From the sequence record OZ035767.1: a DNA stretch of 44,816 nucleotides; one strand, given 5' to 3'. Shown here piece after piece: positions 33,531 through 44,534 of the stretch. The position numbers and the translations under genes are program-made. The stretch comes from Veterinaerplatzvirus T145P1. The notes below the pieces were generated by a model that saw only the letters and a program-made list of their open reading frames with translations, did no database searches and was not told the DNA's origin. The number at the start of each line of letters is the position of its first letter. The first letter of the stretch is position 1.

Positions 33531-33707
33531 ATGACTAAAATGATTTATTGCACCAAAAACAACTCCAAAACGCTGCCATTTACAGTTAACCAGCCGTACA
33601 ATGCAGAGTACCAGGGTGATGGATATTACAAGATTTACGGTGACGATATGACGTGGATTTTAGCGCCGATTGAAGGTTCACTGGTTGAATTTATTATCGC
33701 TGACTAG
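33531..33707 (+). CDS. hypothetical small protein
   Basis: 58-aa ORF after promoter-like element and RBS GAGGAA; followed by terminator. Confidence 0.4.
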   Translation: MTKMIYCTKNNSKTLPFTVNQPYNAEYQGDGYYKIYGDDMTWILAPIEGSLVEFIIAD

Positions 33708-33732: not shown

Positions 33733-33761
33733 CGGGGGGCCTTTTGGCTCCCCTTTTTTAT
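33733..33761 (+). terminator. rho-independent terminator before lysis cassette
   Basis: GGGGGGCC-TTTT-GGCTCCCC then T6. Confidence 0.7.
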
Positions 33762-33838
33762 GCTTCTTTTCCGAGCATGGCTCCTGTATCATGTTTACAC
33801 TAACTTAAACATTGACAAATAAATAAATGGAGGATCAC

Positions 33839-34054
33839 ATGAGGGAAGTAATCAACGCCGCTACGGCGTCAACTGGAGGGGCAGCGGTAACTGGAGCGGC
33901 AACTGGTCAGATGACTATAGCAATAATCAGCCTTATCGCTTTAATCATTTTTGGTGCGTGGGGTGCTTACTGGAAGTTTAAGGATAGCCAGGCGATTCGG
34001 CGCGCTCTTGAATCAGGAGACTTAAAAACAGCAATCAAGATAAGGAGTAAGTAA
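33839..34054 (+). CDS. putative holin
   Basis: 71 aa with one strongly hydrophobic transmembrane segment and charged C-terminus; immediately upstream of the endolysin. Confidence 0.55.
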   Translation: MREVINAATASTGGAAVTGAATGQMTIAIISLIALIIFGAWGAYWKFKDSQAIRRALESGDLKTAIKIRSK

Positions 34055-34540
34055 ATGAAGCAGAAGCTGCTAATTAGCGCGGCTACGGCTGCGGCAATAT
34101 ACATCGCAGCACCGCTTATTGAGCTCGTAGAGGGTGTGGAGAACAAGCCTTACATGGACATTGCCGGGGTGAAAACCGTATGCGCAGGTATTACTGGCTC
34201 TGACGTTGTTTGGGGTAAGACTTACAGTAATAGGGAGTGCCGGAACCTGCTGGAGAAGCACATCCAGATTCATGGTAAGTATGTTCAGGATGCGGTTACC
34301 TACCCAATTGCACCACAGACAAGAGCTGCATTAATCAGCTTTAGCTATAACGTTGGCGGCAATGCAATGAGGAAGTCTACCGCTGTAAGGCTAATCAACC
34401 AGGGTAAAGTTGAGAAGGGTTGCAACGCTCTCGGGATGTGGAACAAAGCAAGAGTTAACGGAAAGCTGAAGGTAGTTAAAGGCTTGGTGAATCGCAGGAA
34501 TGAGGAGATTAAGTTATGTTTAAGTGGATTGCAGCGTTAG
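34055..34540 (+). CDS. SAR endolysin (phage lysozyme, P21 R21-like)
   Basis: N-terminal weakly hydrophobic signal-anchor-release segment; E-x8-D-x5-T lysozyme catalytic pattern; similarity by recall to R21. Confidence 0.85.
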   Translation: MKQKLLISAATAAAIYIAAPLIELVEGVENKPYMDIAGVKTVCAGITGSDVVWGKTYSNRECRNLLEKHIQIHGKYVQDAVTYPIAPQTRAALISFSYNVGGNAMRKSTAVRLINQGKVEKGCNALGMWNKARVNGKLKVVKGLVNRRNEEIKLCLSGLQR

Positions 34541-34905
34541 TAGTGTGCGTAGCTTTATCTGGATGTTCGGCAACTGATGCACTGACTGGATTGATTGGAA
34601 GCAAGCCGGAAGTTACAGCTCAGGTCGGGGCTGAGAACAACAAGGTTGGCGTTGGGTTAACGAATAAGGTCGATTCCAGCAGCTCCAGTGAAGCCACGGT
34701 TAAAGATTCTAAAGTTGGGTCACTTGATAGCTCAAGCGGGAAAAAGACTGCTGACAACTCGATTAAGGCATCTACAATCACTGCCGAAAAGATTGAGATT
34801 ACCAACAACGACTCATCCGCGCCTCCATGGATTGTAATGGGAGCTATGGGGTTGCTGTTTTTTGTTCCACTTACCGCAATCTTAAGACGCAAAAAAGCCT
34901 CCTAA
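34516..34905 (+). CDS. unimolecular spanin (u-spanin, T1 gp11-like)
   Basis: N-terminal lipoprotein signal with lipobox LSGC plus C-terminal transmembrane segment and basic tail in a single polypeptide. Confidence 0.75.
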   Translation: MFKWIAALVVCVALSGCSATDALTGLIGSKPEVTAQVGAENNKVGVGLTNKVDSSSSSEATVKDSKVGSLDSSSGKKTADNSIKASTITAEKIEITNNDSSAPPWIVMGAMGLLFFVPLTAILRRKKAS

Positions 34906-34920
34906 TGGAGGCTATATTTT
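34890..34920. terminator. bidirectional terminator between spanin and convergent minus-strand operon
   Basis: AGCCTCC-TAAT-GGAGGCT hairpin with A-run and T-run flanks. Confidence 0.7.
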
Positions 34921-35255
34921 TAGCTAAATAACTCGTCGTCAGTCATTGTTCCTATATTCATCATCTCTTTTATGTACTTGCTTTGATACCCGTTAAGCGC
35001 CTCGAAGTTAAACTCAAATGGCCTCTTCAAGCTACCATTGCTAGCAAACTCACCGCACTTACCATCAATGTATCCCATGCTAAGCATCTTCGCGCAGAAC
35101 TCCTTTGAAGCCGCGCTGCAAAACTCCCTATGCGATAATCCTGCCGCCTTACTGAATCTCTGAGAGTCCTTATGCTGGTAGATGAATCGCGCCAAATGCT
35201 GTCGCGTGAAAAAGCTGTAAGATTCGCAGAACCGGTACAAGTCAAGGATGAACAT
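34920..35255 (-). CDS. hypothetical protein
   Basis: 111 aa; last gene of the minus-strand operon, ends at a bidirectional terminator. Confidence 0.5.
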   Translation of the reverse strand: MFILDLYRFCESYSFFTRQHLARFIYQHKDSQRFSKAAGLSHREFCSAASKEFCAKMLSMGYIDGKCGEFASNGSLKRPFEFNFEALNGYQSKYIKEMMNIGTMTDDELFS

Positions 35256-44457: not shown

Positions 44458-44534
44458 GCTCGAGTGGCGAAAGTGGATATCGCAAGAGACTTCTAATCTC
44501 TAGATTGCTGGTTCGAATCCAGCCTCGAGCGCCA
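44458..44534 (+). tRNA. tRNA-Arg (anticodon UCU), CCA encoded
   Basis: Hand-folded cloverleaf with all four stems fully Watson-Crick paired (7/4/5/5 bp); U8, A14, G18G19, U33; anticodon loop CUUCUAA; T-loop TTCGAAT; discriminator G then CCA. Confidence 0.9.

Follow-up and report, generated by a model that had tools for sequence, protein, structure and literature searches.

A T1-like late lysis cassette with a putative pinholin, a SAR-type endolysin and a unimolecular spanin

Lysis by a pinholin, a SAR endolysin and a u-spanin has been described for phages 21 and T1 (PMC9636201, PMC6139136, PMC11447400, PMC13164509). T1 gp11 is the prototype u-spanin: it complements the lysis defect of lambda RzRz1, its wild-type lipobox is LSGC, and the periplasmic domain of its family is predicted to consist mainly of beta strands, not of a coiled-coil (PMC6139136). 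The gp11 family has been placed in cassettes that combine a pinholin with a SAR endolysin (PMC6139136, PMC11447400, PMC13164509), and u-spanins in general, counted in 58 of 677 phages, accompany either kind of holin-endolysin system (Kongari et al. 2018, PMC6139136). The T1-family holins are called pinholins (PMC13164509, PMC11447400, PMC6139136). The TLS paper proposes two membrane helices for the holin and speaks of T1 gp12 as no more than a "predicted" SAR endolysin (PMC11447400). Finally, the DUF7244 protein has been described as a standalone SH3 domain and proposed as an accessory lysis component (2026, PMC13164509).

The locus described here very likely serves a T1-like siphophage as its late lysis cassette, working by the pinholin/SAR-endolysin/u-spanin pathway. 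It lies in a stretch of DNA of 44,816 nt, below referred to as the window. We read the structure of the genes, their families and motifs, their conservation and their order directly from this DNA and its relatives, and membrane and signal features were assigned by hydropathy (Kyte-Doolittle, KD, and Wimley-White scales), motif and conservation analysis.

Organization of the cassette and its relatives

The cassette consists of three co-oriented plus-strand ORFs flanked by two terminator hairpins (Table 1). All three ORFs are present with the boundaries given in the preliminary description, which had named them as lysis genes.

Table 1. Coordinates of the cassette features and of the adjacent elements in the window
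Feature	Position	Strand	Basis
DUF7244 protein, 58 aa, equivalent of T1 gp14	33531..33707	+	Pfam PF23896, E=2.6e-29
Intrinsic terminator hairpin with T-run	33734..33753	+	terminator scan; fold -18.1 kcal/mol, z=-3.3
Holin, 71 aa, T1 gp13 family	33839..34054	+	PHROG 2877, hydropathy, alignment A3
Predicted R21-type SAR endolysin (GH24 / T4-lysozyme-like muramidase), 161 aa	34055..34540	+	Pfam, PDB, T1 gp12
Candidate SAR segment KLLISAATAAAIYIAAPLI, endolysin codons 4-22	34064..34120	+	hydropathy, composition; follows basic MKQK
Catalytic motif E26-x8-D35-x5-T41	34130..34177	+	regular-expression match
Predicted unimolecular spanin, T1 gp11 family, 129 aa	34516..34905	+	PHROG 1804, T1 gp11; 25-nt overlap with the endolysin gene
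Predicted lipobox L14-S15-G16-C17	34555..34566	+	motif after hydrophobic signal core; Ser18 at +2
Predicted C-terminal inner-membrane helix, residues about 105-123	34828..34884	+	KD 2.19, Wimley-White -11.3; followed by RRKKAS
Bidirectional terminator hairpin	34896..34913	both (scan)	folds -15.6 / -15.0 kcal/mol, z about -3.5

The 1.8-kb region around the cassette is 98.9% identical to Veterinaerplatzvirus T145P1, a member of a Drexlerviridae genus, and shares 86-91% identity with numerous Braunvirinae phages of E. coli. The cassette DNA is 87-99% identical to those of T145P1, 2725-N35, SU57, JeanPiccard and JulesPiccard, the differences being point substitutions, and the spanin agrees with that of T145P1 in every residue (100% identity). 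Several of the related records already carry functional labels: holin, endolysin and u-spanin or unimolecular spanin in the BASEL phage JulesPiccard (u-spanin there), JeanPiccard and SU57; pinholin, SAR endolysin and u-spanin in Skenny; and SAR endolysin for the enzyme of vB_EcoS-2005III. The search for related loci among viral contigs yielded seven close relatives, and more diverse homologues were drawn from phage records; the matches listed by the protein homologue search all have at least 74% identity, and none of them carries a Pfam domain. No NCBIfam model scored above its cut-off for any of the three cassette proteins.

From the exonuclease gene onward, the genes come in the order of T1 ST16-ST9: DUF7244, holin, endolysin, spanin and then, beyond the terminator, a small gene and a helicase gene, both convergent. 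The three cassette genes are the respective orthologues of T1 genes 13, 12 and 11, with products of 71, 161 and 129 aa here and 71, 162 and 133 aa in T1, and the flanking genes from exonuclease to helicase are arranged alike. The two loci differ in that T1 has an HNH endonuclease gene, absent here, between the exonuclease gene and gene 14, and in the overlap of the endolysin and spanin genes, which is 25 nt here and 1 nt in T1. Moreover, the window phage, a Veterinaerplatzvirus, belongs to the Braunvirinae and T1 to the Tunavirinae.

The upstream hairpin forms the boundary of the cassette, setting the DUF7244 gene apart from the holin gene. A GC-rich inverted repeat with a T-run is found 5' of the holin gene in all seven Drexlerviridae loci compared by eye, and a terminator in this place is annotated in the records of Skenny and AHP24. 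A sigma-70 scan of the interval between this terminator and the holin gene found no promoter. The downstream hairpin separates the cassette from the convergent gene at 34920-35255, and its loop holds the spanin stop codon, a layout that is alike in all seven Drexlerviridae loci (again by eye).

Each gene is preceded by its own strong Shine-Dalgarno sequence: GGAGGA for the holin (4 nt upstream of the ATG), AGGAG for the endolysin and GAGGAG for the spanin. In the mechanical list of ORFs the first gene starts four codons (MEDH) earlier, at 33827 (MEDHM...), with an ATG that overlaps the holin's Shine-Dalgarno site. Position 33839 is the better start, since 33827 lacks a Shine-Dalgarno sequence and is not conserved (JulesPiccard has IKVDH). 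A dual-start holin/antiholin arrangement using ATG 33827 was rejected on the same observations, and the MEDH extension is acidic, not basic.

Endolysin and spanin

The endolysin matches the Pfam family PF00959 Phage_lysozyme (E=7.9e-35, 120 bits with a cut-off of 22.3) and a PHROG endolysin family (E=5.5e-47), and it is 45% identical to T1 gp12. Its best solved relatives are RrrD of DLP12 (4zpu, E=1.2e-27) and R of phage 21 (3hde, E=5.4e-27), the R21 structures matched (3hde, 3hdf) comprising a full-length and a truncated form. The protein belongs to the same GH24 fold family as R21 and RrrD, has a similar length, and its catalytic triad aligns with their LEGV...KDIVGVWT stretch with identical E-x8-D-x5-T spacing. 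The alignment of endolysin homologues (A2) has D35 and T41 invariant and E26 nearly so; it covers seven other phages, drawn from two Autographiviridae genera and from five Drexlerviridae lineages besides that of the window phage.

The N-terminal segment, residues 4-22, consists of Gly, Ala, Ser and Thr by 47% and has a KD value of 1.8, and its hydrophobicity is weak: the best 19-residue Wimley-White octanol sum in the N-terminus is -1.8 kcal/mol, while the helices of the holin and the spanin reach about -11. An equivalent basic start and stretch rich in Gly, Ala, Ser and Thr are kept in 8 homologues, and in those of the seven other phages the catalytic Glu comes next. As in R21 and RrrD, the segment is weakly hydrophobic and free of Cys, while it is Ala/Ile-rich here and Gly/Ala-rich there, and the catalytic Glu is closer to it (position 26, compared to about 35 in the R21 chain numbering). 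Disulfide regulation of the P1 Lyz type involves a Cys in the SAR segment and a Cys instead of Asp in the triad. All Cys residues of the endolysin are at positions 43, 62, 123 and 155; since the SAR segment has none, and Asp35 takes the middle place in the triad, the protein is likely of the R21 and not of the P1 Lyz type. The sequence data thus support an R21-type GH24 lysozyme with a SAR-type N-terminus, the assignment previously made from the E/D/T pattern and the N-terminal segment.

The spanin matches PHROG 1804 "Rz-like spanin" (E=4.4e-49) and is 44% identical to T1 gp11 over 108 of 129 residues (E=9e-26). Membership of the gp11 u-spanin family has been defined by an identity of 40% or more across no less than 40% of the length (Kongari et al. 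2018, PMC6139136), and both values lie above these thresholds here, which supports the assignment of the product to this family. Cys17 of the lipobox is the predicted lipid-attachment site, and Ser18 in position +2 is predicted to favor sorting to the outer membrane. In the alignment of 10 homologues (A1), with identity down to 32%, none of the residues G16, C17 and S18 varies; all 10 also have the C-terminal hydrophobic stretch with its basic tail, though the sequence there drifts. Besides Cys17, the protein contains one Cys, Cys11 of the signal peptide, and its mature periplasmic part has none. The AlphaFold2 model, built with 34 close homologues, has a mean pLDDT of 54.5 and contains only the signal helix (3-14) and the C-terminal helix (104-128), the latter being its best-scoring part; residues 16-86 have pLDDT below 50 and no assigned secondary structure.

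Lambda Rz/Rz1 has an equal role, also in the last position of the cassette, with a lipoprotein anchor and a membrane helix linking both membranes. The spanin described here differs in that it consists of one chain, without a second gene embedded or overlapping, in that its periplasmic part lacks Cys, and in that a beta-rich, not coiled-coil, periplasmic domain is predicted for its family (PMC6139136). A hidden two-component spanin was considered and rejected, as the other plus-strand frames of the cassette contain neither a lipobox nor an N-terminal membrane helix with a periplasmic domain.

Most of what the preliminary description had proposed for these two genes agrees with the data, and the features are well beyond what chance would give. 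The family searches it had called for returned a lysozyme (PF00959) and a spanin (PHROG 1804) with the E-values given above; the lipoprotein signal LSGC and the C-terminal anchor were both found in one chain and are conserved; and a gp11-type u-spanin instead of an i-/o-spanin pair is in line with the identity to gp11 and with the lack of a second candidate ORF in the cassette. Three statements have to be narrowed. Sec export and membrane tethering of the enzyme, in place of release by a large-hole holin, are predicted from homology. The u-spanin architecture had been called rare, which holds in the relative sense of the 58 of 677 phages (PMC6139136); however, it is typical of Drexlerviridae and not unusual there, and a tblastn search with the spanin matched 1169 of 50,697 phage records. 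The cassette had also been taken to support a T1-like lineage, and this is correct for DNA identity and gene order, but not for the spanin by itself. The gp11-type family is present also in Autographiviridae (Drulisvirus KpV48, Phimunavirus Slant, HHU8), whose cassettes have the order spanin, holin, endolysin, and the spanin alone is therefore no marker of the T1 lineage. The assignment to this lineage rests on comparison of DNA and gene order, not on the spanin.

Holin class and alternative readings

For the endolysin, the alternative is an ordinary cleavable Sec signal peptide, with the enzyme secreted in soluble form instead of being tethered and then released. The N-terminus does have a basic start, a hydrophobic core and Ala-rich stretches (AAA at 12-14, AA at 18-19), but the places where it could be cut are poor. 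Pro at +1 disfavors cleavage by signal peptidase I, and Pro20 directly follows A18-A19, the only late Ala-Ala pair, so that cleavage there is disfavored; a cut after A14 would leave too short a hydrophobic core; and, with the catalytic Glu26 only four residues beyond the hydrophobic stretch, a cut nearby would trim the catalytic domain. Moreover, the alignments with the closest solved relatives, R21 and RrrD, begin at endolysin residue 12, that is, within the N-terminal segment and run through it, and in R21 this part is reportedly retained and folds into the active enzyme. Relatives are also annotated as SAR endolysins. A cleaved, soluble enzyme thus seems very unlikely. An extremely improbable reading of the last gene is that it encodes just an outer-membrane lipoprotein or a generic membrane protein, the outer membrane being disrupted by the product of another gene. 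In its favor, some orthologue records say "putative membrane protein", "Rz1 protein" or "hypothetical protein", and the protein has no Pfam family and no NCBIfam match above the cut-off; yet it shares 44% identity with a protein that complements lambda RzRz1 (PMC6139136), occupies the last cassette position as T1 gp11 does, and has a lipobox and a C-terminal helix that are jointly conserved in all homologues, and the cassette ORFs offer no i-spanin or o-spanin candidate.

The class of the holin is the weakest link of the whole model. The protein matches PHROG 2877 "holin" over its entire length (E=3.3e-37, positions 1-71 of 71) and is 58% identical to T1 gp13 with no gaps; its C-terminal tail is basic, and the end of its gene directly adjoins the start of the SAR-type endolysin gene (34054/34055). 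It is probably a pinholin. A canonical or class III-like single-helix holin, forming large holes, is unlikely, although several observations agree with it. Such a holin would still free the SAR endolysin, as depolarization of the membrane releases the SAR endolysin Lyz of phage P1. The only clearly hydrophobic segment is 25-45 (MTIAIISLIALIIFGAWGAYW), a strongly hydrophobic membrane helix (KD 1.96, Wimley-White about -11), while residues 4-24 (VINAATASTGGAAVTGAATGQ) are uncharged and Gly/Ala/Thr-rich with a KD value of 0.63. A single holin transmembrane domain is given in the database records of T1, Skenny and AHP24, and u-spanins function with either holin-endolysin type (Kongari et al., PMC6139136). 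On the other hand, residues 4-45 form one unbroken charge-free stretch, and its 42 residues are long enough for a helical hairpin, with a first half whose composition resembles a SAR-type first membrane helix; publications treat the T1-family holins as pinholins (PMC13164509, PMC11447400, PMC6139136), and large holes are unnecessary for a SAR endolysin. If residues 4-24 were a SAR-like first helix that exits the membrane, the one-helix and two-helix views would share the final topology, with the N-terminus out and the C-terminus in.

This can be taken further by assuming both that the holin indeed has such a first helix, with holin and endolysin exiting the membrane in a manner sensitive to the proton motive force, and that the DUF7244/SH3 protein is a fourth lysis factor. 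We consider this combination rather improbable; reading by eye, the DUF7244 protein shows no obvious N-terminal hydrophobic signal sequence. Both ideas have already been published for T1-like phages (PMC11447400, PMC13164509), and, if true, they would extend known biology without constituting a new kind of system.

Proposed course of lysis and significance

Under the preferred pinholin/SAR-endolysin/u-spanin model, the host Sec system would export the endolysin, whose weakly hydrophobic SAR segment would then hold it inactive in the inner membrane, with no release through large holes; the segment ends only a few residues ahead of the catalytic Glu26. The holin would meanwhile build up in the inner membrane and, upon a timed trigger, probably form small "pinholes", collapsing the proton motive force. 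The SAR segment would then exit the bilayer, and the endolysin would refold as R21 does (steric activation) and cut peptidoglycan; disulfide caging is not expected, since the SAR segment is free of Cys. The spanin would receive its lipid at Cys17 and go to the outer membrane, its C-terminal helix residing in the inner membrane and the chain passing across the periplasm through the meshes of the cell wall. After degradation of the wall, the spanin may move and collapse and fuse or disrupt both membranes, releasing the phage. In this scheme, export, tethering, pinhole size and membrane fusion are what we infer by homology with phage 21 and T1.

The cassette itself is already known: the same cassette, partly with the same protein sequences, has been deposited and annotated, and the archetype of its spanin, gp11, has been characterized experimentally. 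The questions it raises concern the whole family, namely, the way in which a spanin made of one chain disrupts the outer membrane, the pinholin nature of the T1-type holin, and a possible part of the SH3-like neighbor in lysis. For the window phage, the value of the analysis lies in correct annotation, with secure labels for three genes, and in confirming it as a T1-like (Drexlerviridae) phage with the usual lysis strategy of its family.

The 3' end of the spanin gene and the region upstream of the holin

The stop codon of the u-spanin gene lies in the loop of the bidirectional terminator. Where the gene encodes the RRKKAS tail at the C-terminus of the protein, the lysine codons, AAAAAA, double as an A-run, which acts as the terminator's T-run on the opposite strand. 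By visual inspection of the printed sequences, the same arrangement is seen in the Drexlerviridae phages T1, JulesPiccard, W011D, CS01, Skenny and AHP24. Given this shared arrangement, the conserved KK(A/G)(S/A) end of the spanin may be under a double constraint, from both the protein and the RNA.

Upstream of the holin, a TTGACAAATAAAT-like motif at 20–27 nt from the ATG is common to the window, JulesPiccard, W011D and CS01, while in T1 a similar motif, GTCAAATAAAT, lies at a greater distance 5' of the gene. In the sigma-70 scan the motif of the window did not qualify as a promoter, nor did anything else in the stretch from the upstream terminator to the holin gene.

Features of the window and of the compared Autographiviridae loci
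Feature	Coordinates	Strand	Remark
DUF7244 protein gene	33531-33707		58 aa; just upstream of the cassette
Strong terminator	33734-33753		between the DUF7244 and holin genes
TTGACAAATAAAT-like motif	33810-33826		5' of the holin ATG
Spanin 3' end, with the stop codon in the terminator loop	34885-34925		
Convergent gene	34920-35255	-	111 aa; downstream of the cassette; PHROG 2794 (unknown function), E=1.7e-55
tRNA-Arg	44458-44534		anticodon TCT; near the window end
u-spanin-bearing region, L012	1501-2732		Autographiviridae
u-spanin-bearing region, L016	1405-2642		Autographiviridae
u-spanin-bearing region, L017	1474-2850		Autographiviridae

Other genes of the window

The DUF7244 protein was proposed in 2026 to be an accessory lysis factor of the standalone SH3 type (PMC13164509). 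Its gene is separated from the holin gene by the strong terminator; in Skenny and CS01 it is missing from the position ahead of the holin. Reading of the sequence alone reveals no obvious hydrophobic signal sequence at the N-terminus of the protein encoded in the window. If cytoplasmic, this 6.6-kDa protein would presumably be unable to pass through pinholes of roughly 2 nm, which is hard to square with binding to the cell wall ahead of lysis.

The product of the convergent gene has no Pfam match; the gene stands where T1 has gene 10, adjoining the helicase gene. The tRNA-Arg gene is the sole tRNA and the sole Rfam match across the 44.8-kb window.

Spanin homologues in other phages

Campylobacter jejuni is given as the host for 21 of the spanin matches, and the entry for "Pseudomonas phage PsgS01F" (PP134917.1) has length and cassette match statistics identical to those of E. 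coli phage PCEc3. Both the Campylobacter jejuni and the Pseudomonas labels likely reflect host misannotation or contaminating coliphages.

Podophages of the Autographiviridae that infect Klebsiella, Pectobacterium and E. coli also carry homologues of the u-spanin. In the three tabulated loci the gene order is spanin, holin, endolysin, the set directly following the large terminase gene. These observations suggest horizontal movement of the spanin gene between unrelated phage families.
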